A stretch of DNA of 64,000 nucleotides from a virus (Duplodnaviria; Caudoviricetes). The position numbers and the translations under genes were made by a program. Below, piece by piece: positions 10,211 through 55,248 of this stretch (positions within the stretch are counted from its first letter, which is position 1; every line of letters begins with the position of its first letter). The notes under the pieces are model-generated. The model was given only the letters and a program-made list of their open reading frames with translations. It made no database searches and was not told the DNA's origin. The DNA is taken from positions 32,001 to 96,000 of IMG/VR virus record IMGVR_UViG_2926558313_000004, one strand, 5' to 3'.

Positions 10211-10400
10211 TGTAGGAGAGATTACATTATTTGAACTACTCACCACTTAACACCCTTCGGGTTGTTTGAAGTGGGAGATTCTTGGGAATAGAGCGTACTT
10301 GTTAGCGTATTTCTTTGCCAACAGAGGTTTCTCTTATTGACCAAGCTATCCCCGTAGATTCCTACGGTTCTATATTTTTTGTTTAAGCCAAAACTAAGGC
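10211..10400 (-). ncRNA. TnpB omegaRNA/reRNA scaffold plus flank-derived guide
   Basis: Structured sequence between the tnpB stop and the right end; guide predicted as ATAATGTAATCTCTCC (10230-10215). Boundaries approximate. Confidence 0.7.
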
Positions 10401-11525
10401 TCTTAAACCTTCGGCTAGGATATTTTTGCTGGCATTTATATCTCTATCGTGATGTTCGTGGCAAACAGGACAAGTCCAATCCCTTATTTCAAGAGATTTC
10501 TTGCCATCTTGATGTCCACAATCGGAACATATTTGACTAGACGGAAACCATCTGCTTATTTTCACGATTGTTTTACCATACCATTTCGCTTTGTATTCTA
10601 ATTTAGTTACAAAGGCAGACCATGATACATCAGAGATTGATTTTGCTAACTTATGATTGCGTAACATTCCTTTGGTGTTCAAGTCTTCGATACAGACAAT
10701 ATCGTGGTTTTTGATGATTTCTGTACTTAACTTGTTAAGAAAATCGTCACGTTGGTTCATTACTCTCTCATGCAATCTAGCAACTTTACGCTTTTGTTTC
10801 TGATAGTTTTTTGCATCAAGAAGGTTAATACCATTGTTTTTAGCATTTAACGCACGTCTTGAGAGTTTTCGCTGTTCACGTTTTAGTTTCTTTTCCATTT
10901 TTGATGTGAATTTCTTATTATCAATCTTGCGACCATCAGAAAGAATGGCAAAGTCAGTAATGCCTAAGTCTATACCAATAGATGATTCAGTTTTCTCCAA
11001 TGGCTGTACTTCTATTTCTGCAAGAATGGATACAAAGTATTTACCACTAGGATTTCGTCTAACAGTAGCATTAAGGAGACGACCATGTACTTCACGACTT
11101 TTGGCAAAGCGAACAAGACCAAGTTTCGGCAATTTGATTTTGCTGGCTACAATGGCAATGTTATTGTTTGTTCCTTTAGTCGTGTAGGATTGTACTTTAT
11201 TCTTTTTAGACTTGAAGCGCGGTGCTTTATTTTGTTTCTTGAAGAATCGAGTATACGAATCAGCAAGGTTTTTCAGTGATGATTGAAGGGCAATGCTATC
11301 AACTTCTTTTAACCATACTAATTCTTTTTTTAATTGTGTTAACTGAGCAGAACAAGAATTATAAGTTAATCCTTTGCCAGTTTCTTTGTATGTATCGTTC
11401 CATTGACCTAAAAAGCGATTAAATACAAAACGACTACATCCTATTGTTTTAGCAATTAAGATTTCCTGTTCTTTGGTTGGATAGATACGGAATTTGTACG
11501 CTTTGTTGACTAACATTGTTTCCAC
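10383..11525 (-). CDS. tnpB: RNA-guided endonuclease TnpB
   Basis: KAYKFRIYP HTH; RuvC D (GIDLG), E (IEDL), D (DRDINA); Zn finger CSDC...CPVC. Confidence 0.97.
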   Translation of the reverse strand: METMLVNKAYKFRIYPTKEQEILIAKTIGCSRFVFNRFLGQWNDTYKETGKGLTYNSCSAQLTQLKKELVWLKEVDSIALQSSLKNLADSYTRFFKKQNKAPRFKSKKNKVQSYTTKGTNNNIAIVASKIKLPKLGLVRFAKSREVHGRLLNATVRRNPSGKYFVSILAEIEVQPLEKTESSIGIDLGITDFAILSDGRKIDNKKFTSKMEKKLKREQRKLSRRALNAKNNGINLLDAKNYQKQKRKVARLHERVMNQRDDFLNKLSTEIIKNHDIVCIEDLNTKGMLRNHKLAKSISDVSWSAFVTKLEYKAKWYGKTIVKISRWFPSSQICSDCGHQDGKKSLEIRDWTCPVCHEHHDRDINASKNILAEGLRALVLA

Positions 11526-11526
11526 C

Positions 11527-11925
11527 TCACTTTAGACCTTGATTTTCAATGTACTTTTTAACTACGTTGATTGGAGATCCACCAGTAGTTAGTAAGCAAA
11601 AACTTCTCGACCAAAACATTTCTTTCCATAGCTTTTTTCTTATTTGTGGGAAGTCACGTTTTATCAGACGAGAACTTGCACTTTTATAAGCATTTATGAA
11701 CTTTGACAATTCTGTATTAGGGTGTGCTTTGAACAAGATGTGAACATGGTCTTTATCATGATTCCATTCGACTAGGGAGATATTATATTTCTCGCCTAGC
11801 TTTACAAACATATCCTCAGCATAGTCAGATACTTTATCATCAAAGACTTCTCTACGATATTTTACAACTAGTACAAGATGGTAATACATTAAGAATACTG
11901 AATGATTATTACTGTCCAATTTCAT
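11527..11925 (-). CDS. tnpA: Y1 HUH transposase TnpA
   Basis: YHLVLVVKYRR, DHVH (HUH), FWSRSF, YIENQ catalytic Tyr. Confidence 0.97.
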   Translation of the reverse strand: MKLDSNNHSVFLMYYHLVLVVKYRREVFDDKVSDYAEDMFVKLGEKYNISLVEWNHDKDHVHILFKAHPNTELSKFINAYKSASSRLIKRDFPQIRKKLWKEMFWSRSFCLLTTGGSPINVVKKYIENQGLK

Positions 11926-13185: not shown

Positions 13186-13207
13186 TCAGTCCATAAATAC
13201 TGGACTA
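13186..13207. terminator. Hairpin at the yopR-like stop
   Basis: AGTCCA-taaatac-TGGACT. Confidence 0.4.
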
Positions 13208-14179
13208 AATTTCGTATAACTTCTTGATGTTTTCTATGTTGACATCCTCTTTGATGCCAATAAGGTTGTAATCCATCTTGCCTTGCAGTTTTGATTTTTT
13301 ATGCCCGAAATTTTGAACAATTGTTCTCAAGTCGTTATTTGTTAGCTCCCCTGTTTCTTCATATATATCCTTTCCCACTTTTATCATGCCACTTCTTGCG
13401 ATATTTGTCGGCGTGAGATAAGGATAGTCAAAAAACTTTTTAAGCATTTTTACTCTAGTATAAAGTGTCATATTTCCGACTGGTGCATTTTCATCTAATA
13501 CCCGACCATTATCAATAGATCGGATAATAAAATCATTGCGTATTAATTTCTTTTCTGGATTTGCTCGTTGAAAAACGGATTCTCCGTTATTAACAATGTA
13601 TACAGATTCTTTATAAGCTTCCGTAATTATTCTTAAACACCTATCACTTACTTTTACCTCCCTTTCCATCTCTCCTCTAACTTTTATAATATTATTATCA
13701 AAGTCTATGTCTTTATAATGTAAATTTCTAATCTCACTCAGTTGTGATCCTTTCAATCCTTCAAATAGCAACCGGAAAACAACCTTGTCTTGTCCATTAA
13801 CTAACTTCTTATCTTCTAGTTCTGCCAACTCTTCTTCAGTAAGAAACTGCTTTTTGCTATGGTCAATTAAACGGAACAAGGAATCTCTAGTTAAATTTGC
13901 AATTGGATTAATGGAGCTATTAGAATATCCATGAGCACTAGCCCAGTCTATATAATTTTTAAACACATTTGCTGCCATAGCTATAGAGCCTAATGATGGC
14001 TGAGCCATGTCTCTTAAGGTATCTTCAATTTCTGCTCTAGTAAAAGAATATAGGTCTTTCTGGAGCGCTCTTTCATTTCTTTCAGCCCCTCTTAGCTTGT
14101 ATCTATAAATAACTGCAGTATCTGCATCATAATTTTTTAAAAAAGCTTCTTTGATTTTTTCGTTGTACAAATTAGACAC
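13205..14179 (-). CDS. yopR: Tyrosine-recombinase-fold master repressor, YopR/MrpR/SroF-like
   Basis: LYNEKIKEAFL start; LLFEGLKG..LSEIRNL; lacks the canonical catalytic R and HxxR; third gene of the yopP-Q-R triad. Confidence 0.8.
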   Translation of the reverse strand: MSNLYNEKIKEAFLKNYDADTAVIYRYKLRGAERNERALQKDLYSFTRAEIEDTLRDMAQPSLGSIAMAANVFKNYIDWASAHGYSNSSINPIANLTRDSLFRLIDHSKKQFLTEEELAELEDKKLVNGQDKVVFRLLFEGLKGSQLSEIRNLHYKDIDFDNNIIKVRGEMEREVKVSDRCLRIITEAYKESVYIVNNGESVFQRANPEKKLIRNDFIIRSIDNGRVLDENAPVGNMTLYTRVKMLKKFFDYPYLTPTNIARSGMIKVGKDIYEETGELTNNDLRTIVQNFGHKKSKLQGKMDYNLIGIKEDVNIENIKKLYEI

Positions 14180-15551
14180 CTACCTTGTATTTACTCAAAT
14201 CAATATTTTCAAACACTTCTTTTATGTGTTTCCGTATCCCTGCTGGAGATTTACCTTTCAACTCTTGCCAATTCTCCTTATTAAAGTCGATATCTTTTAC
14301 AATATCAGATAGTAACTCAATTTCAATACCCTCATCTTGCATTCGTTTAGCTAAGCAGACAAAACCATAAAACATAGTTGGTCTGTTAATTTCACTTTTA
14401 TATCTTATCTCTTTAATATCGCTGATGAATTCATCAGGAAACGAGTAACAAAGATTATTGAAATACTTAGTCAAATACTGACCAGTTTTAATAGCTTGAC
14501 CTCTATTTTCCATTTCAAAAAATTCTTCTACGGCATCCACTAAAATTCCGAAAGTAGTTAATTCATCAGACTTAACAGTATTCTCAGACGTAATCTTTTC
14601 TTTTAATTCACTACCTGACTTTTTAAGAAATTCTACAGCTACAGTAGATAACTTTTCTTGATCCATCTCCTTCATTCGAGAAGTAGTGATATCATTAAAT
14701 GTATTAATTTCAACAAACACTTCTTTTGCTTCGGCATCAGTGAGATTCTGTATCTTTATGATAAACTCCATGTCTTTATTTGGATTTTCATGCTGCCCTT
14801 CAACTGTTGCTGTAAAACGGTGAAATCCGTCAATGCAGTCAAATAAAGTCCCTTTTGTAATGGTTAATTCTTTTGTATCTTCATCGTAGGAGATTTCTTC
14901 CCCATCATCTGAACTTCCCAGGCGGGCATTAAAAGTTAATGTCGTACTTGATAATTTCCCTTTTAAAAATCTGTTTTTGATTCCTTCGATGCTTCTTCTA
15001 AATATTTTTGGGACGGGAATAAAGGTTTCATCATCAACCTGTTTGACTTTGCCACTTCTTTGTACGTTAGGATTATATTGAATCTGTTTTCCATTGCTTA
15101 ATAATCGCATTTCTGTTACGGATATTTTACCCGTATAGCCATCGTGCAACTTTTCGAAACTACTCTTGAAAGTATATGGAAATTTGATTTCTTCCGCCTG
15201 ATAACCCGTAAAAGTTGTTTCAATTTCCTTCTTCTCTCTTTCATTATAAAAATGGTCTGGATTCAGTCTTTGATTACCCGTTGTCATGTAAAGCTGCACT
15301 GAAAAAACATACAGCTCTTTATCGTCTAGTTGTGGAACTTCCTTTTCGGGATCATTTAATACAGATTGAACTCTGCCTCCCAGCACTTTAAACTCTGCCA
15401 TCAGATCCTTGTATTTACTAACCATATCTTTTTTTGTTTTTATTGTGGGAAGTATTTCAATCAATACACTCTCTAATTCTTTTCTTTCTACTTTCACAAT
15501 GTGACACCTCTCTTCAAAAGACATTTCAATTAATTTTGTTATTAAATTCAA
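14172..15551 (-). CDS. yopQ: YopQ/SroE-like protein with a DndB/DGQHR (ParB-Srx fold) domain
   Basis: YNPNVQR, TLTFNA, CIDGFHR motif; 459 aa; synteny. Confidence 0.8.
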   Translation of the reverse strand: MNLITKLIEMSFEERCHIVKVERKELESVLIEILPTIKTKKDMVSKYKDLMAEFKVLGGRVQSVLNDPEKEVPQLDDKELYVFSVQLYMTTGNQRLNPDHFYNEREKKEIETTFTGYQAEEIKFPYTFKSSFEKLHDGYTGKISVTEMRLLSNGKQIQYNPNVQRSGKVKQVDDETFIPVPKIFRRSIEGIKNRFLKGKLSSTTLTFNARLGSSDDGEEISYDEDTKELTITKGTLFDCIDGFHRFTATVEGQHENPNKDMEFIIKIQNLTDAEAKEVFVEINTFNDITTSRMKEMDQEKLSTVAVEFLKKSGSELKEKITSENTVKSDELTTFGILVDAVEEFFEMENRGQAIKTGQYLTKYFNNLCYSFPDEFISDIKEIRYKSEINRPTMFYGFVCLAKRMQDEGIEIELLSDIVKDIDFNKENWQELKGKSPAGIRKHIKEVFENIDLSKYKVGV

Positions 15552-15608: not shown

Positions 15609-16682
15609 TTATAAATTCGAATTGAGGTTTCTTAGTAATATAATTTTCGCAACTTTATTACTATTAATTAAGTCCAATAACTCTTCTTTACTTAGCGATT
15701 CTAGAGCATCGCTGTTAAGAAATTTATCGAAATCTAACACACCTATTCTCTTGTATTTATTTTCTTTTATATATCTTTTTGTGACATTGAAATCTGAGTG
15801 ACCTGCGAATTCCATTGTCGCATGAGGATCTTTTGAGTTTTCATAAAAAATAGTAATCGCAGTTCCACGTATGCTATGGAAAGAGACATTTCTTTTTTCT
15901 GAAATATTCATTTTGATTTTAAGTTGATTCATTAGTTTCGATATATGATTCTTGTTAAACGGAAATACTACCTCGTCATTAACTTTATTATCAATTAATT
16001 CTTGAAAAAAGTCTTCATCTACATAATGAATTTTCCTCCGCTGCCCTTTTCCTCTTAATTCGATTTCATAATCTCCTTCTCTTGTGAGAATAAAATCGCT
16101 CCACTTCAACTTTAAAATTTCTTGCTGTCTCAGTCCGGTGTGTAAAGCGAACTTAATCAGCAATCCTTGAATAATTCGATTTTTAAATCTAGGCATTCCC
16201 TCTTTGACCATTGGGGCAATCTTTATCATTTCTTCTACTTCTTCCTTATGGAGTAAGCCGTAATTTACTTCTACGCTCTTAAGCTTTTGCATTTTACTAA
16301 TGAAGCTAATGTCTATATCGGCTAATAAACCAAATTCTATCTTCCTGCTATTTATATAGCTAAACAATCCAGTTATTGTCGTTAACTTTCGTTTTATTGT
16401 TTTATTAACCGAACCTTCATCCTGTAAATGAGCAATAAATTTATCAATATCGCTAACAGTAACTTTAAAATCATGTTCGATTAAATTTTCCAGCTCTTTT
16501 CCTTTTGTGATTTTAAAGAAATGTCTTATGTCACCCAAGTAGTTTTTAATTGTATTTTCGGATCTTCCGTTGCTCTTTAAATACATCATAATTATCTCTA
16601 AACAATTAACTTTATTTATATGGACTAATTGTAAGCTCATCTCTTTCATCCTCCTCAAAATTATATTAGGTTTATTATACAA
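15609..16682 (-). CDS. yopP: Tyrosine recombinase, YopP/SroD-like (start probably about 16649-16640)
   Basis: SAM-like N-domain (SENTIKNY); full catalytic set GLR, RGKG, FHSIR, AGH, RY. Confidence 0.85.
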   Translation of the reverse strand: MYNKPNIILRRMKEMSLQLVHINKVNCLEIIMMYLKSNGRSENTIKNYLGDIRHFFKITKGKELENLIEHDFKVTVSDIDKFIAHLQDEGSVNKTIKRKLTTITGLFSYINSRKIEFGLLADIDISFISKMQKLKSVEVNYGLLHKEEVEEMIKIAPMVKEGMPRFKNRIIQGLLIKFALHTGLRQQEILKLKWSDFILTREGDYEIELRGKGQRRKIHYVDEDFFQELIDNKVNDEVVFPFNKNHISKLMNQLKIKMNISEKRNVSFHSIRGTAITIFYENSKDPHATMEFAGHSDFNVTKRYIKENKYKRIGVLDFDKFLNSDALESLSKEELLDLINSNKVAKIILLRNLNSNL

Positions 16683-20598: not shown

Positions 20599-23500
20599 GA
20601 CTATCCCTCATTTCAATTGAGTATATAGTATATTATACTCAAAATTTCCATTGTTTGAAATATTAAGAGGGGTGAAACACTCCTTATTTTTGAATCATGA
20701 TTACCTTTAATCAAACTGACATTTCAACTAGATTTATGACTGTCTTTATATTCACTAACTGACATTTCTTTTAACTTTAATATATTGTATTTGTCCAATA
20801 AACCAAGCAATTCTCTCGGTTCTAAATGATCAATTGAACCAATATCAACCTTATCGATAATTAATCTCTCGTCAATTCCTCTATTAACCCACGTAACTTC
20901 TTTCATATTATCACACTCCTTCAAATAGATATTTTATTCAGCTTTTTTATTCACAAAGTAGAGAAATAATTCTTCAATTTCTAGAATGTTCTCTTCAATA
21001 TTACCTTCATTGTTATTAATAAAAGCTAAAGCCTCTGTATAAGGTTCTCCATCAAACGGGGGAGACACTGCTGTTAAATTGTCAATTGGTACTCCATAAG
21101 CTCGTATAGCTTCATCAACCTCCCTTGATAACCTGTGAGCTTTCGCTTGTGCTTTTGCATATTGCCGCAGCTTCTGTTTAATTTCATATGGCATTGCTTT
21201 CATATTTAAATTTCACCTACTTTATAAGTTTGCGTTCAATTTTTACTTTCTAGCATATGATCCCATCTATACTCATAAGGAAAACCAATAAAAGAACTTT
21301 CAAACTTCTTTACTCCTGCCTCTTTTAGTTTTTCTTTTGTCCACACAGGCTTATTATTTAAGAAATGTCCTAATGTACTGAATCCATCATTATCGCCCAT
21401 GTAAAACATTTGATTTAAGTACTGAGAGTTTTTTACATCTTTAACTAAGATTGCAGTTTCAATTTGAAATACTCTTCCTACACCACTAGAAATGTCATCT
21501 TCTTCTAATGGATAGCCAGTTAAGTTAGCGAAAACCACAACTTCTTCATTTTCATACATCTCAAAATAGTAATCGAAATTATTATCATTGAATTTATTCT
21601 CTATGATTAACTGGTCAATGTCATTAATTTTCATCTCACTAAGCTTTTCTATATATTCAACTTCAATCTCTGGCAGTTTCATATGAGTTTACTCTCTCCT
21701 TTTCGCATTAGAGCTTTCCTCTATAGTGTCTATTCTAAATTCGTATTCATTCACACGTTTATAATACATAAATCTGTTGTAGTCATCTCCCCAGTAATAT
21801 CTACCTAAGACTTTTCCATTTTCCCAAACTTCTACATAGTAATCATCTATACTATGATTGTCATCATGTATAGAGGCTATTGCTTTTTCGAGATCAGTTC
21901 CTGCATAGATTGTTCTAGTTGGCTCATGCATATCCACTTCAAAAATTCCCAAATACACCTTCGTCATTTTATATCCTTCTCCTTAAAACTCTGATATTAT
22001 CTGGCTAAAATCGATAGAGCGTTTAACTCATTTCCAATCCATTCATATTGAAATTTACTAAACAGTTGAATAGTTAACTCATAACCCTCTTCGACTTCTA
22101 CAGCATCACTTATAACACCGATAGTTTTTGTTTCAAAGGTATTAGAAAGGTCTACTCTGTCTAATACAGGTTTATTTAGATAGGAAGATAGTTCACCATC
22201 TTTTGGAACTATCGTTTTAAACTTGACAAAGCTCATATTCTCCCCTCCCTCCTTTTCTTTAAAAGTGAAATTTTATTAAATATACTGCACCACCGCTATC
22301 TGCCTTGATTCCTTGAGGCACTACTGCTTCACTCTTTACTTTAGTCTTACTAATGCTAAATTCTACAATTGCTGTTTACATTTCTTCATCTCTCTGAAGT
22401 GAGCCTCATCTGAATTTATCATACTTACCCTCTTTCCATTTTTCTTTTGAAACCTGTAGTACGATTAACCATCCATTGCGAAATCTACATTTTTCATATA
22501 CTTGGATATATTCCTCTGACTCAGAAATGAATCTTTCCATCAAAGTGCTCCTCCTCTCACTGTAAAATCATACTTTTAAATAGTTATTTCTTTCTTTTGC
22601 TTACTACTTCACTAACCCCTAATACGCCCTCTTTATCGCAAAAGATATTTGTAAAAGAAGCTTCAGTTACAGCTTCAAAAAGGTCGCTATCTATTAGCTT
22701 ATTGGCGTAGTCAGCATTTTCAGATGAAATAGCCATTCCAATCCTATCATCTGTTTTACTTAATGACAGATATACTTTAAATACATAGTTCAACTTTTCT
22801 AAAGGATGCATCTCCCTCAATGTATCTGAGCTAACTGTATTAAAGCCTTTACTTTTGAAATACGGATCTGACAATAGAATCACCCTCCAAATTTAAAAAT
22901 GGGAAATCAGATTTTATTCTTCATTACCTTCATAAAATTCATATTTTACCAAAAGTTATTCACTAAGAAACCTTTCAAAGTCTTCCATCATAGTATGTAA
23001 ATATGAATGTCCACCGTCCCATCCAACGCTATTCAATTCCTCTTCAAGAGCACGAAGGTTTTCTAGAAATGCCTCCGCTTCGGCTTTTTGACCATCTAAG
23101 AATCCCTTATCATACTGTTTTAACTTTGCCATTGTTCCCCTCCTTCGCTTTAGTGTCGAATTGTGTATTAAAGTTCTTCAAATTCCCTCTCCTTATCAGC
23201 AAGAAATTCTTTGTGATGCTGTAAAATAACGTCCCTCACTTCATCTTTTTTCTCTCCAATTAAATACATTTTTTGCGGCTTTGTTGCTGAGGATAAGGTG
23301 ATTTCATCAGATTTAAATAACTCTTCCCAGTTTTTTATATTTAATCGTTCGGTTCTGATTATCGACTCCAGAACTTTAGCCCTTTGTAACGTTTCCATGT
23401 CCATTTTCTCTCACCTTCCTTCACAAAATCACTCTGAAATACACCAGTTCGATTTTTACTTTGCTGTTATACATAATTATACCATTTCAGCCATTCGCTC

Positions 23501-26500
23501 AGTTAGCCCTTTATTCAAATTAACGCCCTCTAAATTCATCTTTTTTGTATATGTAAATCCTTCTTCTAAGTCTGCTTCTACGCATTCTTTATATTTCAAT
23601 CCTCTATAGCTTTCATCATTAAACGGTATCTTATATAAATAACCCTCTACAAAATCATAAGCTCGTTCCTCAGTTTTAAATGACTCTACTGGCATGGATG
23701 AGAACTCCATATAGACATCATAATATCCATGTGCCTCTACAACCTTAGTATTATTAATATTAGCAATTTGCTCTCCTTTCATTATTATCACCTCTCCGAA
23801 TAAGTCTTTTCTTCTTTCTTGAATTAGCCACTTTTACGAAGTGGTCAATTTCATTTTGATCATTTGCTTCAATAGCATTATTATATAATTCAATTTGTTT
23901 ATCTGTTAAATATTCGACCACTTCTTCACTCATATTTATCACCTAATTATTTTATATTTGTTTATTCATCCGCACACTCGAAATGATTTTCTTGCTTCAG
24001 CTACTTCCATCATACGCATTAAGACATCTACAAAATCACTATCTGACCTTGAATGATCTTCATAAGCCATAGCAAGTTCTAACTGCTCTTTTGGTGTCAA
24101 ATAAAACATTAATCCGTTAAACTTTTCATAAGTTTCAATATATTCATTATACGCATCGATTTCAATTTTCATCTCATCAACACTCATCTTCTCTCCCCCT
24201 TGCAATTTATTTCCTTAAGTTAATAATAACATGGTTTCCACATCCTAACAATAAAAATCTTAACATAATTTAATTTATTTTATTTACAAAATTCCAGTTC
24301 GAATTTTCGTTCGCTGTTATACGGTTTCGCGCTGTCTAATATCATTCAAAATTTCGTCTTTAGATCTTCTTACTCCAATTTCATTTATAACTTGAATTCC
24401 CAGAGAAGTAAAAACTTCTTCGAGAATAGGGAAGTCAACTTCATCATACGAAAACTTTCCATCGGTCGATGCATTTTGAATGTTGCTTAATAAACGTTTC
24501 AATAAATCATCCTTACTAATTCGACCGTCAACCATCCAAGCACTATAGAAGATATTACCAATAAATTTTCTTAATTTTATTTCTTCCATAAGCTTCAAAT
24601 CGATCATTTTTTGATAAATATCAACTACCATACTCAGGATATTATATTTATCAATATGATTTACTGGAATGTCATATAATTCAGAAGCAAAATACTTTAA
24701 GTCTTGATCATAGTTAATTCGTCCGAAGTGTCCTTTGGTGTATAATATAAGCTGCTTTTCAAAATGATTAAGTTCTGTTTTCATGTTACACCACCCTTTA
24801 ACTATATTTATTTTTAATTTCTACCATAACTAACATTGCATAGGTGAAATAGGATTTATCACCGAACATTTTATACAGCGTCATATAATCATTATATTTA
24901 TCAAGAAGATCATCAATGCAGTGATTGTTAGATAGTTCAAGTTTAATTATCATATCAGCATTCACCAGCCTCATAATTTTATTAATTTGCTCCTGAGAAA
25001 AAGCTTCTGGTTTATTATAGTTATTCATTTTTAAGCTCCTATCTGCCTTCTTAAAATCAGCATTTTATTAAGTTTCATAGTCTCCACCTAAAATTTCATC
25101 TTTGGTGAATATAGGCAAAATCCATAGCAACCAATATGTAGTACTTTTTCTTTTCTGTTTTCCATAATATCCAACCTTTTTAAAATAATATTTTTCAGTC
25201 TTTCTTATCATGTTATCAACTCCTTTAAAGTTTTTTAATGCCAATAAATTCATCTGGATAAATATATTCACTTAAATATCTTTCTTTATCCCATACATCC
25301 AATCTGTCATAACCCAGCCCTTCATTCTCTACTTCTCTAACTTCCACTATGTCACCGTTAGACCATAGCATCTCTCCCTGTCTAATTGCATTCACATTAA
25401 TAATTTTTATTTTTTCTCCTTTTTTGAAATTAGTAATTAACATTTTTGTCATCCCCATTATTAAATTTAATTGAAATTACATTTTTATTTAAAGCTGTTC
25501 AATAAGTTAACTTTTCTTTCCGCTTCTTCACTGCTCGCATAGCTATAAGGAGAATGACCACTTTCAGTATGATAGATATGATAGGCTCCGGTTTCATCTT
25601 CAAACTCATAATACCATTCTCCAATTTTCAATTGCTCTTCTGTTAATTTCATTAGATCTCCTCCTCTAAAATCCCTATTTTATGTAGCTGCTGTTATTCA
25701 ATCTCACTTACTGATTCAGTCCAAAAACAAGACCCTGTATTGTTGAAATAAATGTCAACCTTTTCATTCTTAAAGAATTGTATTAGTAAATCATAAAAAT
25801 CTGTCGTTGGGTTAATAATCTGGTCTTCCATATTCAAATATCTATCTTTAACCAACTTAATATCTACACTACTATGATTGGGGATCAGTCTTATACTACT
25901 TCCTGACTGTTCCATTAAATTGTTAAATTCATTAATCATTTCTTTTGAAATAACGCTCATCATTATTCCCTCCTGTTTTATCCAATCATTTTGATTATAC
26001 TATGTCTTGAATATGTTCACATCGATAATTTCAGCAATAGTATGTAGCTGCTGTTATACACTTAATGATCGAACTATTCATTAACCTTTTTAAACCTTCC
26101 ATTAATGTACATTTCTTCTCTTACATATCTTCTTGCTGATTGATACGAGGGAAACCAAAGGGCGTTTGTTGTTGAATCACTCCAATGGTTAGTGCAGATT
26201 GTAAAAAAGTCTTTTCTTACTTCTGTTATCGTGACAGTTTCTCTATCAGTTTCAATTCTCCATTTATTCAATTTTTACACCCTTTCTTAATGAACATAAT
26301 CACTCTTATGTTCAATTACTATAAAATGATTCTTTTAATTAAATTGCTCAGACTTCTTTTTAACTGTTAAAATAAACTCTCCTGCAACTCCTTGCTCGTA
26401 AAAATAATTTTCAAAATCATCTAAGGTGTCAATTAATGTCATAATCATATGTTGTTCAGGCAACATTTCTATTTCAAATTTTACATGTCCTTCATCATTC

Positions 26501-26820
26501 ATTTCAATATAATATACACTTCCCGAAGCTTTATAATGCATCATGGTATATTCTACTTCAGGAAAACGTTGCTCGATAATGTCTTTTGTTCTAAAATCAA
26601 AAGTATGAATACAAGCAACCATTGCTTGCTCTAAAATGTCATTAAAAGTGACTTTTTCTTTATCTATTTCCAAGAATCCTATTACATCTGCAACTTGTTC
26701 ATAAACCCCATCACTTAGATTATAGATGTAGTTTTCCTCAAAATTATTTCTAGCATATTTTTGAATCATTTCTTCACGGCTCATTAGTTTATTCATTAAT
26801 ACCCCTCCTGATTTTAGATG

Positions 26821-27057
26821 CTATTCACCCGAAAACCAATCGTCTTCATCAACTATTTTAAAAACTCTGTCTACATCTGTTATTTCTAATGCCGTGATTA
26901 TTGTATTGAGCGTATCTATCTTGATTGTCGTTCTTTTCATGTTCACAAGCTCACTAATCTTGGGCTGCGTAATGCCTGTTAACTGACTTAGTTGAGCTTG
27001 TGTCATGTTTTTCTCATAAAGTATTTCTTTGAGGCGCAATTTAACTTTTAAGTTCAA
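26821..27057 (-). CDS. XRE-family HTH regulator
   Basis: LKEILYEKNMTQAQLSQLTGITQPKISEL. Confidence 0.9.
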   Translation of the reverse strand: MNLKVKLRLKEILYEKNMTQAQLSQLTGITQPKISELVNMKRTTIKIDTLNTIITALEITDVDRVFKIVDEDDWFSGE

Positions 27058-27931
27058 TAATTGTCACTCCCCTTCGAAATATCTCTTAGCTGCTTCGAAA
27101 AAGAATTTTTCTGGCAGGGCATATAAAGGAAAGTCAAATCCTTGTAAATTATATTGCTCATGAATTTTTCTAGTTAAGCCGTCGTTTAAAATTCCGGTCT
27201 TTTTCCATTCCACTAATTCGTCGTAAGCCGCTTTTAGTTGCTTGTCTGTTAATGCTGCAATAAACTCCTCTAAATGTTTCATTATTATAATTCCTCCTTA
27301 AATTCCAGCGATTAAAAGACTTCGCTGTTATATGATTAATCATTAAGGTAGTCTGTATCCAATTCAGCATAGCAAGGGTTGACATCTTCTATATTTTTTC
27401 CTTCCGGTACTTTCCAGCATATAAAAGCCGGATGTCCGTCGATTGTTTCTGCTTTTGCTACATGTGTGAAACCTCTTGGACTGCTTATTTTGATTGGCTT
27501 ATCAGTCATTATATATTCATCTTCTGCAATTGTATAAACTTCCATATTAAATCCCTCCCCTTTTGAGTTATATTATACCATTGTTGGAATAGAGGGCAAT
27601 TGAAGAAAACATATTTTAGTTTTTTCTCAATGACCTACTTTTATATCGAAAAATTTTAGAAAGTCATCCGTTACAAAAATATCATCCTTTGTGATCTCTG
27701 CCTGTATGTCCTTGTTATAACCTTCGGCTGCACTGTAAATAGCGTAAATTTTTGCTTTATCGTATGTGCGCCCATTTAGTTTTACAATTCTTAGAATAGC
27801 CCCATGACAAATCACCAGTCGGTTGAATTCGTCATTACCTTGTATGGATATATCATTTATTTTACCTCCCTCAAAAATTATTGTTGCCGTAGCCCCTGAA
27901 TTTTTATGAGTTAATACTATTATTTTCATTT

Positions 27932-28693
27932 CTAATTCCTCCTTTCTATTATAAACGTAATCTCATGATCGTTTGACAGATCACCTTGTAATACCTCGAT
28001 TAAGTATTGCGGATTACGAATAAACTTTTTAATGAGTGTAACGCTTGTGTATATCATGATGTTTCTATAAATTTTATCGTGGTCACTTACAACATCGTTA
28101 GAGTTGAATGCCCCGCTAAGATCAAAGTAGACATATGCTTCTCTATCTCCTTCTGTGAACGATTCATCACCGTTATTAGATATATCCACCTTTATTTTTG
28201 TTTGGTAGAATAATCCGTGTTTTAATTTTTGGATAATCGTCACGCCCTCTAATAAAGCTTTTTCCAGTTGATCGCTTGTCATCTCAACTGTTTTGTAATC
28301 AATTGTCTTTTTTAGTGACGGGCGCTGCAATCTATCCCATTCTTTTATTAGAGTCTCTTCCAGTTTCCTTTCTTTTTCGGGAGGAGACTCTTTATTATTT
28401 TTTGAGTTTATTTCCATTTCTACATAGTCGAAAATTATATCGACGTGTACATATCCCGCCCAATATGGATCGTAACCTGGATCAATCGACTCTACTGTCC
28501 TAGATTTAAAAAACAGGATCGCTTGCTCGTCACTTTTTAGATTATGACATAGAGACGAAGGGATTACTGTGTAGTGCATGTTGGTATTTTTGTCAAGTAC
28601 TGTGTAATCGGTCAAAATATCTTTCAGATGATAGTCTGATCGAGAAAAATCCTTACCTGTTACCTTTAACATATCTTTGTGTAATTGTTCCAT
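27932..28693 (-). CDS. Hypothetical protein
   Basis: 253-aa ORF with RBS GGAGG. Confidence 0.7.
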   Translation of the reverse strand: MEQLHKDMLKVTGKDFSRSDYHLKDILTDYTVLDKNTNMHYTVIPSSLCHNLKSDEQAILFFKSRTVESIDPGYDPYWAGYVHVDIIFDYVEMEINSKNNKESPPEKERKLEETLIKEWDRLQRPSLKKTIDYKTVEMTSDQLEKALLEGVTIIQKLKHGLFYQTKIKVDISNNGDESFTEGDREAYVYFDLSGAFNSNDVVSDHDKIYRNIMIYTSVTLIKKFIRNPQYLIEVLQGDLSNDHEITFIIERRN

Positions 28694-28803
28694 ATCATCC
28701 TACCTCCATTTATTTTATTTTTATTAATTTCGTTTTTAATCTTTCCAGCAATCCTTCGATCAAGCTGTTATACACTATAACTAGTCGAAGGATTAAGCAA
28801 AAA

Positions 28804-29370
28804 TTAAATATCTAACTCTTTAACTTTGATCGGATTACTTGCGACAACTAACCGCTCACTAAGAGCTACGTCTGTTAAGTCGCCATCTTTTTTATAATCA
28901 AAATCTTTAATTGTAACAGCCGTATACATATCGCACTCAGTAATCAAGTGTGGAGGCAGTGTGCCGACAACGTGCTTGCCTTTAATATCCTCTGCTGTTA
29001 CATTCTCAAAAACGGGCGCTAACCACCAGTCTTTTTTAAGAATATCAATCGTGCCTTTATGACGGCTTGCGATCACTGTTTTATCTGGATTGGAATACTT
29101 AATAAGATCAAGCTTATCTACAACCTCAATTTGATATTTGCGTACTGGTAAATCAGCATCAAAAATCTCTTGAGATGTGTTAAATATTGTGCCTCTCGGC
29201 AGTTGCAGTGCATAAAACTCTGTTACTCCTTGCTCTGCTAAAATAGCAGGTGATAGCGACGATAAAACAACCTCTTCTGTTCCTTGACTGAAATCAGATA
29301 ATCCCTTAATAGCTTCAAATCCACTTGCTACAACCTTTTTTTCTGATAATAATTGTTTAATAGTTTTCAT
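28804..29370 (-). CDS. Csx16-like protein with tandem domains (putative ring nuclease)
   Basis: C-half IASRHKGT...DIKGKHVVGTLPPHL matches the Csx16 SRH.G...V.GTLP.HL pattern; N-half VVLSSLSPAILAE...YALQLP looks like a degenerate copy. Confidence 0.55.
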   Translation of the reverse strand: MKTIKQLLSEKKVVASGFEAIKGLSDFSQGTEEVVLSSLSPAILAEQGVTEFYALQLPRGTIFNTSQEIFDADLPVRKYQIEVVDKLDLIKYSNPDKTVIASRHKGTIDILKKDWWLAPVFENVTAEDIKGKHVVGTLPPHLITECDMYTAVTIKDFDYKKDGDLTDVALSERLVVASNPIKVKELDI

Positions 29371-30827
29371 TTTAAATTCTCCTTTTTTTATATTTTTAAT
29401 TTTATTTTTCCAGTGATTCTCTTAGCTGCCTGTTAATCAACTAAGAGAATCTGACAAGTATGAATTAGATATTCTCTACTCTGATTGGATTATCCCAATC
29501 ACAAGCTTCTGACTCGTCTGAAGTATCAAAATTAATTGTTTCCCAGTAGATCATATATTCCTTATCATTTTCATCGACAGCATGAGCTTTATACTCACTA
29601 CCATCATCTGAAACATATGCATCTTGCAATGTGCGATACTCTTTACCCTCAAATTCTACAATGGTTGAATTTCCGCTATTTAATTCTTCAAACTTTTTCA
29701 TAATGACTTCCTCCTTTTGTTTTTGTTTCCTTATCTTTAACTTAATTTTATACTAAAAGTAGTATAAAGTCAATAAATTATTATAATTATTTTTATTTTA
29801 TTTATAGGAAATGTGTTTTAATAATGCCTGTTCCAGCCATGTAAAATAATCCTGCTAAAACAATACCTGTCAATATAATAATAGACCAATCAGTTTTATC
29901 TTTATTTTTAATTTGTTTATGTAGCACAATTATCAACCCCATATCATTATTTTAGTTTTATATTGTGAATGAAAAACCTTCCCTCTTACGTTCAGATAAA
30001 ATAGTCATTAATACCGAATCTTTCTTTATAACCCACTACGTTCAGATAATAAAGTCACCTATTTACTTTTTAAAGATCGGAAAGTAACTATGAGATGCGA
30101 ACCCGCAACGTCCAACCTCTAAAACATATCCATTGTTATTTTCCGTTACACAGATCTCCTTATAAGATGAGACATATTCCATTTTCTCTTGTACTTGCTT
30201 AGATATAAAATACAATCCTTTTGAATTCAAATAATTACAAGCGTCCTCTGCTCTTTCAAAATAAAGTTCTCTCCCCCAGTCTTTTTTAAATACGCCAACA
30301 TTCATACCGTTAATTATTTCTCTCATTTTTTACCTCCTGTTATTTAATGATTTAATTATCGCTCATTAAATCAGATATATCAATAGTATCCTCTAAATTC
30401 ATCAACCTGTCAGACATAGCACCCTCTAAATCGTGTTCATTAATCCCAGCTTTGAGTAGTCTTTTTTTTGATTACCTTTTGTTTTTCGAGGGATAATTGA
30501 GATATAAAGATTGTTTTGTTATACTCCATCTATTATAACTCCTTATATAATTAACTTTAAAAGATTGAATTTATCCGAATACAGTATTTATTATTTCCCC
30601 AGTTTTTACATTTAGGAATTTTTCGTTTTTATAATAATCTAAGTAAAACATTTTAATAAAACTTATACCTGTTTCCAAAAGCCCGAAATCATACACCAGA
30701 TTATCCACTTCAATTTTAATCTGATGATTATCTAAGTTGTAATTTATAAGCTTAATGTCTGAAGCCTCTACAAGTTTTTTAATAAACATTTTTATTCCTC
30801 CTTCCAACTTAAAATATTACTTTTATC

Positions 30828-31091
30828 CTAATTAGTTTTTAGGTGTATTTCTCCATTGTCACTAACCTTCAAAGTTGTAATTCCAACATACTCTAAAACT
30901 TCTACCTCTAACACTTGAAACATTTCTCCATTTGGATTACAAAATTTATCATTTACAATTCTCTCAAAATGTCTAATACTTCCGTTTTTCATTTCAACTT
31001 TAAACCTAACCTTATGTCCCTCAAATTCTTTTTGTCTGTTAACAAATTCATCTATGCTCATTTTCATTTCAATTCCTCCAATTTTTTTCAT
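30828..31091 (-). CDS. Hypothetical protein, paralogue of 35499-35705
   Basis: Shared MSIDEF..RQ.EFEG.K.RFKVEMKNGSI.HFER.VNDKFCNPNGE.F.VLEVE.LEYVGI. Confidence 0.8.
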   Translation of the reverse strand: MKKIGGIEMKMSIDEFVNRQKEFEGHKVRFKVEMKNGSIRHFERIVNDKFCNPNGEMFQVLEVEVLEYVGITTLKVSDNGEIHLKTN

Positions 31092-32022
31092 AAAAGGTTT
31101 ATTTTATTATAGCTTCCTATGCTTCTTGTTCTGTCCGAAAAACTGTAAATTCATTCCTAGTCTACTTTTATCTTTCTTCTTTTTTAAAAAATCTTTTGCA
31201 AGCTCAATTTGAGAAGGCTTTAACGCTTTAATAATTGGACTTTATTCATCTTTGATCGTCCGGCAATTCCTTTTTCCTTCGCTAGTTCATAAAGCTCTTT
31301 CATTGTCATATTAGATAGTTTTTTGTTATTCATTTTTATTTCCTCCCTGTTTATCTTTAATTTTATTTTATATCATTACTAGTATAATGTCAATATATAA
31401 TTTAATTAATTTTATTAAAATGCCAGTGATAATTTAAAGATGCTGTTATAGAAATGTTAATTACGAACCAATCTAACAAAATTGATCAATTGCTCCTGTG
31501 AATAGTTTTCTCGTTTAAATCTTGGTAAATTAATTTCGTTCAAATCAAATTCTTTCAAGCCTAATTCTTTTAGGCGTCTAAAATAACTTTTCAGGCTAAT
31601 CCATTTTAAAGCTGTTATACTTGTTTCCCATTCGCTAAAACGAACGAGTGAACCGTCTACAATATTATAATTATATTTAAAAATATTTCCCGTGTTCGTA
31701 TTAACTTCTACGACTTCATAGGAACATGAGCCATTGTTGTATTTTCTGAATGCCTTGATATTTTTCATATTAAAAACCTCCAGTATTATTTATACTTTGC
31801 TGTTATAAGCTTATTTGTTCGGCTTCAATATTTAATTCATTCACCCATCTATTATGTGCTTCTATTCCTGCTCCTACGTTACGGCAGCACTGAGGGCGCA
31901 AAGGACATTGCCCGCAATTATTTTTATAGTTCTGTTTGCAAATATCCTTTACTTTTTGTTTTAATTCTTCATACATGCTTAAAACCTCCACCAGTTCGAT
32001 TTTTAATCTGCTGTTATATAGA

Positions 32023-47455: not shown

Positions 47456-49669
47456 TTAACTCCTCCATTTGTTTAACTCTTCTTTGCTTGCTATTAATTC
47501 ATATCCCCTATTCCCTTCATGCTTTATCAGCCATCTATCTTCAATTAACTGATGCATTAATTCCTTTATTACTTCTGGTCTTGTTCTCATCTCTTCTCTT
47601 AATTTTCTCGCTCTTACTTCCCCTGTGCTAGCGATAATGCGTTTAATTTTATCCAATGGACTTTCTTCTACTACTTTCGGATTTAAATACCGATTCGATT
47701 TTACATATGAGATAATTTTTTTATATGTTTTTTCTTCCTCATTAGCATTTAAAGAAATTACCGCACTTTGAAATTGCTCAAATGGTTTGATTTGACCTTT
47801 TAACTTCATGACTCCATGCCCACTACCCAATAATTCAAATGGAACACCTGTTCCAAAAACTGTTCTGTATCCAGAAGAGGTTGATAATCTGAAACTAATC
47901 TTAGATGGAATATTGTCTTTAATTATGGTATCAACAATATTTTTATTTGGCTGCTGAGTAGCTATTATTAAATGGATTCCAGAAGCCCTTGCTTTTTGAC
48001 TTATTTTTTGAATACTGTCAACTATTTGGGGATTAGCCATCTTTAAATCTGCGAATTCATCAATTATGATTACGATATATGGAAGAGGATCATGGGGATT
48101 TTTTTGATTATAACTCTTGATGTCTTTAGCACCTCTCTTTTTAAATAATTCATATCTTTTTTCCATTTCTTGAATAACCTCATTCTCCATCTTTAACGAT
48201 GCCTCTTTTGGATCTGTAATTACTGAATTAACGTGAGGAAATTCTTTAAACTGTACTAGTTCTACTTGTTTTGGGTCAATAAGATAAAGATTAAGGCGAC
48301 TAGGTGGAACAAAAAGGAGCATTGTTAAAATAGCTTGATTTAAAAAATTGGATTTTCCTCCTCCTGTCTCACCAGCTATAAGAAGATGGGTTAAAGAAGT
48401 CAAACAACGAAATATCGGTTTACCAAATGAATCGAGTCCGACAAAGAAAGGAATTTCCAACTCTATGAGAGAATTTTGTGTCTTTTTATCAGATAATACT
48501 TCACTGAGATAAATCGCATTCTTGTTTTGTTTGGCAATTAAAAACCCAATGGTGTCAGGTTTATCACCTTGTTCAATTGACAGTGAAGATACTCCAAGTG
48601 ACACCTGAACATCTTCCTTTTTTGCAATAATTTTTGAATAAACTAAGTCTTTTGGTATGAAGTACTGACACCTAATAAAACTAAGACCATCCATTTCATG
48701 ATCTAATTTCATATCTTTTTCACTTTTAATTACACCTATTCTTTTTAATGTTTTTGGTATTTGTAGAGAAATATCTCTATATTCATTATTTATACTTTTA
48801 TTATTGTTCATTGGCAATAGATCAAATATATTGTTTGCGGCATTAACACCCTCCTTTTCTTTGTGCCTCCCTTCTTCAATTATATCTTTTGTGAGTTCTA
48901 TTGTATTGTCGTAAGCCAAGAACGAATTTATCTCATTTCTGCTCAAATATTGTTTTTCATAAAATATTGATGAACCACTTTTAATTTCTTCTATGAAAAA
49001 ACAGTTCATTCCTGACAGTTTTTTGCACGAATATTTTATTAAGTCTTTAATTAATTTTATTTGGCTATTGTTGTTGCTATCGATACCTATCATACATTCA
49101 AAACTATATTGATCATCAATTATTTTCTGCTCAATTTCTTTTATAGGACTTCTAATCTTAGATTTTGCTTTAAGGTTTAATATGTTCCAAATTGACCGAT
49201 AAAAACCACTTTCTATCGCCAACTCATTTCCGGTGATAAAGTGCTCATATTTTTCTATCTCAGTATCTCTCCATGCCCCACTCCTTTTTTTAATCATTAA
49301 TTTAATTATTATTTTATCATTGGGATCAAAAACATGGAGATTACTAAGCAAAGGAGAAATGAGTGAAAGACCATCTTCTACACCTATCGGAAAGAGCGAG
49401 TCTTCTTTCAATTTCAATCGAATCCAGTTGGCAGCATTAATATTAACTCCGTTTACAACTTCACTCAATCCTCTGTTTTTCCAGAAATAAGGAGCATGAA
49501 GGTAAGACTTGCTTTCGTGTTTATTAATTTCCCATATAACTGACACATGTGCCATTTCTAAGTAGTGATTATCAAATAGCTTTTCATGATCTTTAATCAT
49601 GAAATAACCATATGAATATTTTTCTTCGTCGTTCACATTTATAAAATTTGACAATATTTTATTTAGCAC
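47456..49669 (-). CDS. FtsK/SpoIIIE-family ATPase with a C-terminal wHTH
   Basis: HLLIAGETGGGKS, IDPK, IIDEFADL, RASGIHLIIATQQP, LLGSG. Confidence 0.93.
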   Translation of the reverse strand: MLNKILSNFINVNDEEKYSYGYFMIKDHEKLFDNHYLEMAHVSVIWEINKHESKSYLHAPYFWKNRGLSEVVNGVNINAANWIRLKLKEDSLFPIGVEDGLSLISPLLSNLHVFDPNDKIIIKLMIKKRSGAWRDTEIEKYEHFITGNELAIESGFYRSIWNILNLKAKSKIRSPIKEIEQKIIDDQYSFECMIGIDSNNNSQIKLIKDLIKYSCKKLSGMNCFFIEEIKSGSSIFYEKQYLSRNEINSFLAYDNTIELTKDIIEEGRHKEKEGVNAANNIFDLLPMNNNKSINNEYRDISLQIPKTLKRIGVIKSEKDMKLDHEMDGLSFIRCQYFIPKDLVYSKIIAKKEDVQVSLGVSSLSIEQGDKPDTIGFLIAKQNKNAIYLSEVLSDKKTQNSLIELEIPFFVGLDSFGKPIFRCLTSLTHLLIAGETGGGKSNFLNQAILTMLLFVPPSRLNLYLIDPKQVELVQFKEFPHVNSVITDPKEASLKMENEVIQEMEKRYELFKKRGAKDIKSYNQKNPHDPLPYIVIIIDEFADLKMANPQIVDSIQKISQKARASGIHLIIATQQPNKNIVDTIIKDNIPSKISFRLSTSSGYRTVFGTGVPFELLGSGHGVMKLKGQIKPFEQFQSAVISLNANEEEKTYKKIISYVKSNRYLNPKVVEESPLDKIKRIIASTGEVRARKLREEMRTRPEVIKELMHQLIEDRWLIKHEGNRGYELIASKEELNKWRS

Positions 49670-52999: not shown

Positions 53000-54109
53000 T
53001 TATCGTTGGTATCTTGTTAAAATTTCAGTTATTGACCTCTTTTCTTGTGTTTTTTGTTCCTTTTTATTGAATAGTGAAATATCTAAATCGGGTCGATATC
53101 TTTTTTCAGGTTGTAATGTACTTTTAATTCGACTTTCATCGGAATGAATTTTTTGTTCAATTTGCTTTAATCGTGTTTCACACCATGAAAGACCGCTGCA
53201 AATGGTAATTATTTTGCTTGCGCCTGTGGAATAATATCCCTCAAATAAGTTAATTGGCTCCCCAAAGTCAAAATGCCTAAATAGTCTATTTGAATGTGTA
53301 TTGCTTATAGTTTTGGAGTCATAATCAAAGATCACTCCTGCTTTAATCACCTTTTTCATCTCTGGCTCAATATAAATAGAACATAGCCATGACTGCTTAG
53401 TTTTTTCATATATCCATTGTTCATCTTCAAATTTCGATTCTTCGGTAACATTAATGTCTCCAATAATAGCTAACCCGTCAGTGTCAAAGATCGTCAATAA
53501 GTCTCTCTCATCTAAGTTGGATATAGATGATTCTTCTCGTGTGTATTTTAAAAGTTGATGAATTTGGTTTATAAACTTACAATTTATTTCCATATACTTA
53601 GTGTGTTTATTTAGATTACTGTTTGCTTTTTGATTATCTATAGGCAGAATGCACGTTTGTAAATTAGATAATTCTGAAAAAACATCTAGGGTATTAAGTT
53701 GATTAATTGTTACTTCTGTCAGATCAGGTAAAATTGGACAAGCTACGATAACCTTACCTAATTTATGTTTAAGTAATTCAATAATCATTGGACTAGAGCC
53801 AGAACCAGTTCCTCCGCCAGTGGAAAAAGCAATAAAAATTATCTTAATCGAAGGGTGTGAAAACCTCTCTTCTATAAATGAAACCACTCTCTCCCAATTA
53901 AAGTTCATAAGTCGAAGTGCCTCATTTCGATCTCTTCCCACTCCCTCGGAACCAATTAAACAAAGTTTATTTTCATTTTGAATTTCTTTGCAGCCATCTA
54001 AATCTTTTTGACTGAAATTTATTGCTACTGAAGGATACCCTAATTTAGATGCTAAACTCACTACAGAAGTCCCGCCTTGCCCAACTCCTATGAAACCATA
54101 CATGTTCAT
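53000..54109 (-). CDS. Tubulin/FtsZ-family GTPase (TubZ/RepX-like)
   Basis: GVGQGG, GGGTGSG signature, IDN, T7-like NLDERD. Confidence 0.9.
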   Translation of the reverse strand: MNMYGFIGVGQGGTSVVSLASKLGYPSVAINFSQKDLDGCKEIQNENKLCLIGSEGVGRDRNEALRLMNFNWERVVSFIEERFSHPSIKIIFIAFSTGGGTGSGSSPMIIELLKHKLGKVIVACPILPDLTEVTINQLNTLDVFSELSNLQTCILPIDNQKANSNLNKHTKYMEINCKFINQIHQLLKYTREESSISNLDERDLLTIFDTDGLAIIGDINVTEESKFEDEQWIYEKTKQSWLCSIYIEPEMKKVIKAGVIFDYDSKTISNTHSNRLFRHFDFGEPINLFEGYYSTGASKIITICSGLSWCETRLKQIEQKIHSDESRIKSTLQPEKRYRPDLDISLFNKKEQKTQEKRSITEILTRYQR

Positions 54110-55034: not shown

Positions 55035-55241
55035 GTGAAAAGGCGGATAATAATGAAGGATCTAAAAAAACATAAATTTAGTGTTAGAGAAGTAATTGAA
55101 TATATAGAATATAAGATTTTACACAATGAAGAAACTGATGAGGAATATGGTTGGTATGTTGACTATCGGTGGTTTGGGATCATAAATAAAGATAGAGTTT
55201 TAAGAAAAATTTTGGATGAGATGCATGAGTATTGGGGGTGA
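55035..55241 (+). CDS. Hypothetical protein (YonP-like position)
   Basis: Small ORF directly upstream of the yonO-like gene. Confidence 0.55.
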   Translation: MKRRIIMKDLKKHKFSVREVIEYIEYKILHNEETDEEYGWYVDYRWFGIINKDRVLRKILDEMHEYWG

Positions 55242-55248
55242 AACATTA

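Follow-up and report, generated by a model that had tools for sequence, protein, structure and literature searches.

A two-domain Csx16-like protein from the early region of an SPbeta-like prophage: a candidate pseudodimeric ring nuclease or cyclic-oligoadenylate sponge

The stretch of DNA analysed here (the window; 64,000 nucleotides, positions 32,001 to 96,000 of IMG/VR virus record IMGVR_UViG_2926558313_000004) is a portion of a large prophage within a 4.5-Mb genome (G000, contig C5), and it encodes a 188-amino-acid (aa) protein with two Csx16-like halves that is the subject of this study. Ring nucleases, the enzymes to which Csx16 belongs, are off-switches of cyclic-oligoadenylate (cOA) immunity, and viral copies act as inhibitors of CRISPR defence, or anti-CRISPRs. 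The gene (P0001; 28804..29370, minus strand, ATG start, stop codon included) is one of a series of short genes on the minus strand in the prophage's early region and has a ribosome-binding site, AGGAG, 8 nt before its ATG (29379..29383, minus strand). The AlphaFold2 (AF2) model of the full chain is very confident, with a predicted local distance difference test score (pLDDT) of 94.8 and a predicted template modelling score (pTM) of 0.87, and both halves show the same beta-alpha-beta-alpha-beta-alpha-beta pattern. The 188 residues are thus arranged in two domains rather than in the single-domain organisation of Csx16.

The C-terminal half (residues 89–188; 28807..29106, minus strand) carries the SRH(K)G and G-T-L-P-P-H-L motifs of canonical Csx16 and, on the evidence of sequence profiles and predicted fold, is a genuine Csx16/Cas_VVA1548 domain. 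The Pfam family PF09652 (Cas_VVA1548) matches residues 101–152 with an E-value of 4.3e-5 (24.1 bits), the precomputed Pfam annotation in the protein database flags the same family on this protein, and close members of its family clear the PF09652 cut-off with 27.7, 30.4 and 38.3 bits. When the family alignment of the C-half (residues 89–188) was compared with an alignment of 15 single-domain Csx16 sequences using hhalign, the two matched with a probability of 99.8% (E 1.2e-29) over 78 columns. Two motifs are invariant in the 15-sequence canonical alignment: R-H, which follows strand 1, and G-x-L-P, which follows strand 3. Both are kept in the C-half as S-R103-H104-K-G and G136-T-L138-P139; among 85 family members, H104, G136, L138 and P139 each occur in at least 90%. 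In the ESM Atlas, the model of the protein aligns through residues 94–188 with a 109-aa Csx16 cluster at a template modelling (TM) score of 0.71 by target, which is high enough for the fold to be named. No Csx16 chain was found by sequence in the PDB, and there was therefore no solved Csx16 structure for comparison.

The N-terminal half (residues 1–88; 29107..29370, minus strand) is likely, though not proven, to be a diverged duplicate of the Csx16 domain, as judged from profile comparison and modelling. In this degenerate copy G17-F18 replaces the R-H dyad, while L39/P41 and P58-R59 are kept, and the residues that the half conserves in its own right are G17, F18, A20, P58, R59 and A72. Its profile aligns with that of the C-half in hhalign with a score of 24.7 (P 7.5e-4, 40 columns), pairing VVLSSLSPAIL with HVVGTLPPHLI, and with that of canonical Csx16 with a score of 22.8 (P 1.7e-3, 53 columns) in the same register, P58-R59-G being aligned to the canonical R-G-x-E-L motif. 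The hhalign probabilities attached to these two comparisons are weak (25% and 16%, respectively). None of 228 column shuffles of the N-half reached either score (24.7 against a mean of 11.0 and a maximum of 19.9; 22.8 against a mean of 10.4 and a maximum of 17.5), and the reversed N-half alignment, used as a control, scored 9.7 and 11.9. The N-half modelled alone gives a pLDDT of 94.7, and its nearest structure among the representatives of 7.7 million Atlas clusters is a viral Cas_VVA1548 cluster (TM 0.47, 69 residues); a Foldseek search with the same model returned nothing at E ≤0.001, and each structural signal for the duplication is weak on its own.

These results agree with a preliminary description of the locus, made from the sequence alone, which had recognised a 188-aa open reading frame (ORF) with SRHKGT and KHVVGTLPPHL in a Csx16-like C-half and had taken the N-half for a degenerate repeat. 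The ORF and both strings are present at 28804..29370 (minus strand). The assignment of the C-half is borne out by the hhalign, Pfam and Atlas matches (99.8%, E 4.3e-5 and TM 0.71), and the assignment of the N-half is supported by the shuffles (0/228 reaching the scores) and by a viral Csx16 cluster being its nearest Atlas structure. With the whole protein, the PDB sequence search gave chance matches only (E about 0.9), and DUF1874 (AcrIII-1/Crn2) was absent among the Pfam matches at E ≤10. Two Foldseek rows obtained with the full model against the PDB at E ≤0.001, both Brix-domain ribosome-assembly proteins, were rejected (TM 0.16, root-mean-square deviation 19 Å).

Comparison with known ring nucleases places the protein close to Csx16 in its C-half and apart from it in architecture. 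Given the homology, the shared motifs and the predicted fold described above, the chemistry would be expected to be the same as that of Csx16. Canonical Csx16, however, is a single domain of about 90–125 aa that forms a homodimer and is encoded beside cas genes, whereas the protein described here is a fusion of a degenerate and an intact copy, found in a prophage early region with no cas neighbours and in a genome without a Cas10 match over the cut-off, unlike the canonical, type III-linked Csx16. A closer parallel in architecture is provided by bacterial tandem Csx16 proteins, which likewise hold two Csx16-type domains in one chain, one of them without R-H. They include P0137 (261 aa), a true tandem with two PF09652 stretches whose second domain reads T-H-Q in place of the dyad, and a 262-aa Atlas cluster (86 members, all PF09652) to which residues 3–186 of our protein align along the whole chain with TM 0.56. 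Since the second domain of P0137 has also lost the R-H dyad, asymmetric tandems appear to recur. The order of the domains is nevertheless reversed, the intact domain coming first in P0137, and both of its domains are recognisable by Pfam, whereas the N-half described here is far more diverged and does not match P0137 (P 0.1). The replacement of R-H by G17-F18 in the N-half means that a pocket formed between the two halves would hold one catalytic dyad and not two. In concept the protein also resembles AcrIII-2, a viral SAVED-domain ring nuclease reported as a virus-borne sensor-type domain with two fused CARF-like halves that degrades cyclic tetra-adenylate (cA4; PMC12751052).

The two-domain form is a rare conserved family carried on prophages, phages and a conjugative element and not at CRISPR loci. 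A word-indexed search of 5.8 billion proteins found 73 homologues, most of them 179–195 aa long and ranging from 100% to about 40% identity, while an exhaustive search found 111 representative clusters at E ≤0.001, 27 of them at E ≤1e-30; the family alignment comprises 85 sequences with identities as low as 27%. Members occur in two named phages, Bacillus phage Shbh1 (60%) and phiCs5676-1 of Clostridium (46.5%), in Paenibacillus, Metasolibacillus, Oceanobacillus and Anaeromassilibacillus genomes, in one Saccharibacteria metagenome-assembled genome (MAG) and in seven IMG/VR viral contigs. Among species-representative genomes of the class, the family was present in only 1 of the 401 sampled, which was the lysogen itself.

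Related loci were searched for with a 26-sequence alignment, and no cas family was found among 75 neighbouring ORFs at six of the seven genome loci found (0/6 loci). Clear marks of a mobile element accompany the gene at three of the six scanned loci: a prophage with YolD, a lysozyme and a tail endopeptidase (L002), an integrative and conjugative element with FtsK, Rep_trans and TcpC (L006) and an integrative element with a serine recombinase and Dam (L007). The scanned neighbours at L004, L005 and L008 show no clear marks of this kind. At L008 (9845–10396), a contig of the Candidatus Saccharibacteria MAG, a two-domain member with 45% identity is surrounded by housekeeping genes (for ArgRS, MscL and glutamate dehydrogenase), and genes of a mobile element are not evident within 6 kb. 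Gene neighbours are not conserved across 14 loci, bar a partial two-gene block common to the locus described here and phage Shbh1. Some members are longer, those at L004 (9995–11101), L005 (9977–10789) and L009 (3716–4651) reaching 270–368 aa with acidic C-terminal extensions of about 90–180 aa and others having some 100 additional residues at the C-terminus; the extensions of the longer members (about 240–415 aa) have no Pfam match and no BLAST homology to the ORF downstream of the gene in the window.

The two-domain form was not found described in our literature searches or in the main text of PMC12409355, a statement that does not extend to the supplements of that paper. Several Atlas clusters named Csx16 are almost entirely viral, those of 374, 52 and 71 members being drawn from viruses to 95%, 100% and 100%, respectively. 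This composition suggests that uncultured phages carry single-domain Csx16 much more often than the published 2 of 28,114 cultured-phage genomes would imply.

The gene is preceded by a copy of a repeated element that is a general feature of the early region. The preliminary description had noted two CCAG-N16 elements, each within a longer hairpin, bracketing the gene; read on the coding strand, the element is TAACAG-N16-CTGG, with the extended consensus TATAACAGC-N15-CTGG. Allowing at most one mismatch, TAACAG-N16-CTGG occurs 10 times in the window, all on the minus strand, against an expectation of 1.77 ± 1.22, and none of 100 shuffles reached 10. In the 4.5-Mb genome there are 11 exact matches, of which 8 lie in one 8.6-kb stretch of the prophage, compared with 9 genome-wide for the reversed-pattern control. 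Nine of the sites in the window are intergenic (23444, 24294, 26031, 27305, 28745, 29410, 31423, 31780 and 31991, spanning 23444–32016, minus strand) and lie mostly 11–88 nt before start codons, so that about nine early-region genes are preceded by the motif; the tenth site, at 33795 and one of the two with a mismatch, falls inside a 716-aa ORF and is probably a chance match. One copy (29410..29435, minus strand) lies 39 nt upstream of the ATG of the Csx16-like gene and another (28745..28770, minus strand) 51 nt upstream of the next gene (27932..28693). The apparent bracketing reflects nothing more than one copy upstream of this gene and another upstream of the next. The motif is a phage-specific element of the early region in general, not special to the Csx16-like gene, and probably serves as an operator or promoter.

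Both hairpins of the preliminary description are real. One inverted repeat lies just past the stop codon (28750..28794; arms 28750–28759/28785–28794, 10 nt, 100% complementary, 25-nt loop) and its RNA fold has a z-score of -2.5 against shuffles. The other lies upstream of the gene (29415..29451; arms 29415–29428/29438–29451, 14 nt, 93% complementary); its 9-nt loop contains the TAACAG half-site, and it folds with -19.3 kcal/mol (z -3.9). Strong hairpins are found only at these two motif sites flanking the Csx16-like gene, the z-scores at the other eight being above -2. Neither hairpin was called as an intrinsic terminator, and no U-tract follows either of them. CTGGAAA as a repeated word is not enriched (9 found against 10.2 expected), and a sigma-70 promoter was also rejected, since TATAAC is a possible -10 element but no conserved -35 element lies 16–18 nt upstream in the nine sites.

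The large genes of the window match those of SPbeta-type phages, and by these matches and by gene order the element is an SPbeta-like prophage, in keeping with the phage setting proposed in the preliminary description. A YopP-YopQ-YopR-like trio on the minus strand, identified by PHROGs matches and synteny, consists of an integrase-like YopP-like protein (357 aa; 15609..16682), a YopQ-like protein (459 aa, phrog_5732; 14172..15551) and, in the position of YopR/MrpR, a tyrosine-recombinase-like protein (324 aa, phrog_5830 integrase; 13205..14179). The product of the last gene is 33% identical, over 99% of its length, to that of an SPbeta-family gene lying between yopQ-like and yopS-W genes. In SPbeta, the master repressor MrpR (YopR), a protein of tyrosine-recombinase fold, is reported to bind about ten SPBRE sites upstream of early genes (PMC10516654). 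The prophage described here resembles that system in having a short repeated element in about ten intergenic regions before early genes, together with a protein of YopR/MrpR-like tyrosine-recombinase fold in YopP-Q-R synteny. By this analogy, the motif might tentatively be an operator equivalent to SPBRE or, alternatively, a promoter for a phage polymerase, and the YopR-like protein (13205..14179) is a candidate for the protein that binds it. The motif sequence itself is not common to both phages, an SPbeta-type record having 7 one-mismatch matches against 6 for the control, and SPBRE is a 15-bp motif whereas the element in this prophage is bipartite and extends over 28 bp.

The RpoB of the host is 97–98% identical to that of Halalkalibacter species, and the host is therefore an alkaliphilic member of the Bacillaceae. 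Pfam families were lacking from 31 of the 34 window ORFs scanned, the exceptions being one helix-turn-helix protein and two sub-threshold matches, and megablast with 3 kb around the Csx16-like gene found no match in 50,697 phage records. No cas genes were found in the window among the 38 ORFs of at least 120 aa scanned against PHROGs or the 34 scanned against Pfam, a set that does not take in every small ORF; to this extent the absence of cas genes stated in the preliminary description holds.

The PHROGs scan also revealed FtsK-like, helicase, exonuclease V-like and tubulin-like genes in the window. A 369-aa protein (53000–54109, minus strand) weakly resembles the phage tubulin PhuZ (phrog_4733, E 1.5e-7), and an FtsK/SpoIIIE-like protein of 737 aa is encoded near it (47456–49669); the two may form a segregation or partition module. 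An 860-aa protein (55216–57798, plus strand; phrog_8308, no Pfam match) shares about 53% identity with proteins from SPbeta, phi3T and Clostridium phage D-1873, and its size and phage family fit the single-subunit RNA polymerase YonO, which we take to be a candidate identity. The prophage also contains an IS200/IS605-type pair (10383–11925, minus strand), in which a TnpB-like protein of 380 aa (phrog_506, E 1e-138) comes after a transposase of 132 aa (phrog_2577); the GC skew there is -0.05, compared with about -0.3 in the surrounding sequence.

What the protein may do has to be considered in the light of recent work on its relatives. Csx16, which the preliminary description had given as implicated in cOA degradation, has since been confirmed experimentally as a cA4 ring nuclease; it is reported to degrade cA4, and not cyclic hexa-adenylate (cA6), to linear products, with its specificity kept at a 10-fold higher enzyme concentration, and the same study places it at 68 type III loci and in two phage genomes out of 28,114 (Hoikkala et al. 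2025, PMC12409355). AcrIII-1 and AcrIII-2, and probably also Crn4b, are reported as viral ring-nuclease anti-CRISPRs (PMC12751052; PMC12830947). From the enzymology of Csx16 and these known viral enzymes it follows that a cOA ring nuclease or sponge borne by a mobile element is best supported for the gene described here. The reading that we favour, and to which we attach about even confidence, is that the gene is an internally duplicated, phage-borne member of the Csx16 family whose product is a pseudodimer with an asymmetric cOA pocket, acting as a nuclease or a sponge in early anti-defence. The two halves would pack like the subunits of a Csx16 homodimer and form a single asymmetric pocket for a cOA, most likely cA4. 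The single intact Arg-His site would then open the cOA ring, or the protein would merely sequester it, and effectors of defence activated by cOA would be switched off early in the lytic cycle. The gene lies in the early region, behind TATAACAGC-N15-CTGG as its probable phage-specific operator or promoter.

Several observations weigh against this reading. The Pfam score of the protein itself, 24.1 bits, is just below the gathering cut-off of 25, and an NCBIfam scan gave no match at E ≤10; the doubt raised by the Pfam score is removed, however, because the alignment of its relatives matches single-domain Csx16 at 99.8%. R103 is variable in the 85-member alignment, where SGH, SQH and TQH variants occur. 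Most importantly, a source of cA4 is not obvious in the host: the lysogen has no match to Cas10 (Csm1 or Cmr2) over the cut-off, Csm1 or Cmr2 passed it in 0 of 49 genomes of the host family, Csm1 was found in only 1 of 5 other carrier genomes, and cyclases (SMODS) of the cyclic-oligonucleotide-based anti-phage signalling system (CBASS) were found in only 3 of the 49 host-family genomes. The latter genomes each represent a species, and strains differ in their defence islands, so that the scarcity of Cas10 weakens, but does not refute, an anti-type III role.

The same scarcity would suit a second reading, in which the architecture is retained for another target, with the pocket retuned to cyclic tri-adenylate (cA3), another CBASS product or a nucleotide messenger of Bacillota and the protein acting as an anti-CBASS-like or host-takeover factor. 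SAVED domains are fused CARF-like pairs that read asymmetric signals, and the lack of R-H in the N-half implies a site that is not two-fold symmetric. Relatives of the kind of Csx15 and Crn4 are reported to cleave CBASS-type or several cOA species (10.64898/2026.10.26.761840; PMC12830947). We nevertheless consider such a retuned target unlikely: Cas10 over the cut-off is missing from the lysogen and from 49/49 family genomes, but SMODS cyclases are rare there as well (3/49), the Csx16 assayed in PMC12409355 is reported to have stayed cA4-specific at a 10-fold higher enzyme concentration, and the C-half retains every canonical Csx16 motif. These intact motifs, R-H and G-x-L-P, together with a histidine (H104) present in at least 90% of the 85 members, fit retained catalysis and so also speak against a protein that binds its cyclic nucleotide tightly and sequesters it without any cleavage. 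The loss of half of the catalytic dyads (N-half G17-F18), the variation of R103 among members and the existence of phage cyclic-nucleotide sponges, as reported in PMC12409355, would all suit such a pure sponge, which we regard as improbable.

Whether the two halves of one chain pair with each other is a separate matter. The C-halves of two chains might dimerise as in ordinary Csx16, leaving the N-half as an accessory lid, a regulator or a partner-binding module with alpha/beta likeness only, and the weakness of the similarity between the halves and of the N-half to Csx16 (hhalign 25% and 16%) could be read in this way, as could the report that sandwiching of cA4 by AcrIII-2, which is a fused pair as well, still requires dimers (PMC12751052). 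The failure of all 228 shuffles to reach the two scores, the single register common to both alignments, the place of a Csx16 cluster as top Atlas structural neighbour of the N-half and the alignment of the full chain with a tandem VVA1548 cluster (TM 0.56) make an arrangement of this kind quite improbable to us. Least credible of all is the view that the gene is a remnant of Csx16, decayed or domesticated, that has no role in defence signalling and either an unrelated function or none. The neighbouring genes are ORFans, 31 of the 34 scanned ORFs in the window being without a Pfam match, and the rarity of the family (the lysogen alone among 401 genomes) would be consistent with decay; but constraint on both halves is clear in the 85 sequences, whose identity goes down to 27%, the models of the full chain and of the N-half are both very confident, and the gene recurs on independent mobile elements.

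A more specific possibility, which is speculative and to which we give a low probability, combines the pseudodimer with the lack of Cas10 in its hosts. The family would then form a new class of single-chain, asymmetric ring nucleases or sponges. An asymmetric, one-sited pocket born of duplication and loss of a dyad might no longer need the two-fold symmetric cA4, and with it phages of the SPbeta type and conjugative elements of Bacillota could neutralise a signal outside type III immunity (cA3, a CBASS-type product or another) in hosts without Cas10. By analogy, and with similarly little confidence, a family retuned in this manner could be the Csx16 counterpart of the path by which SAVED arose from CARF.

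The enzymatic activity of Csx16 was not confirmed until 2025, and just two phage genomes have been reported to carry it (PMC12409355). The locus described here reveals a distinct, conserved two-domain Csx16 architecture whose carriers are prophages, phages and a conjugative element, not CRISPR loci, and which is present in a host lineage without a Cas10 over the cut-off. If active, the protein would be an anti-defence enzyme of pseudo-dimeric build that has one catalytic site, and thus a natural experiment on the number of active sites that a ring nuclease needs. Its activity would also raise the question of which signal meets the protein in Bacillaceae without type III CRISPR.

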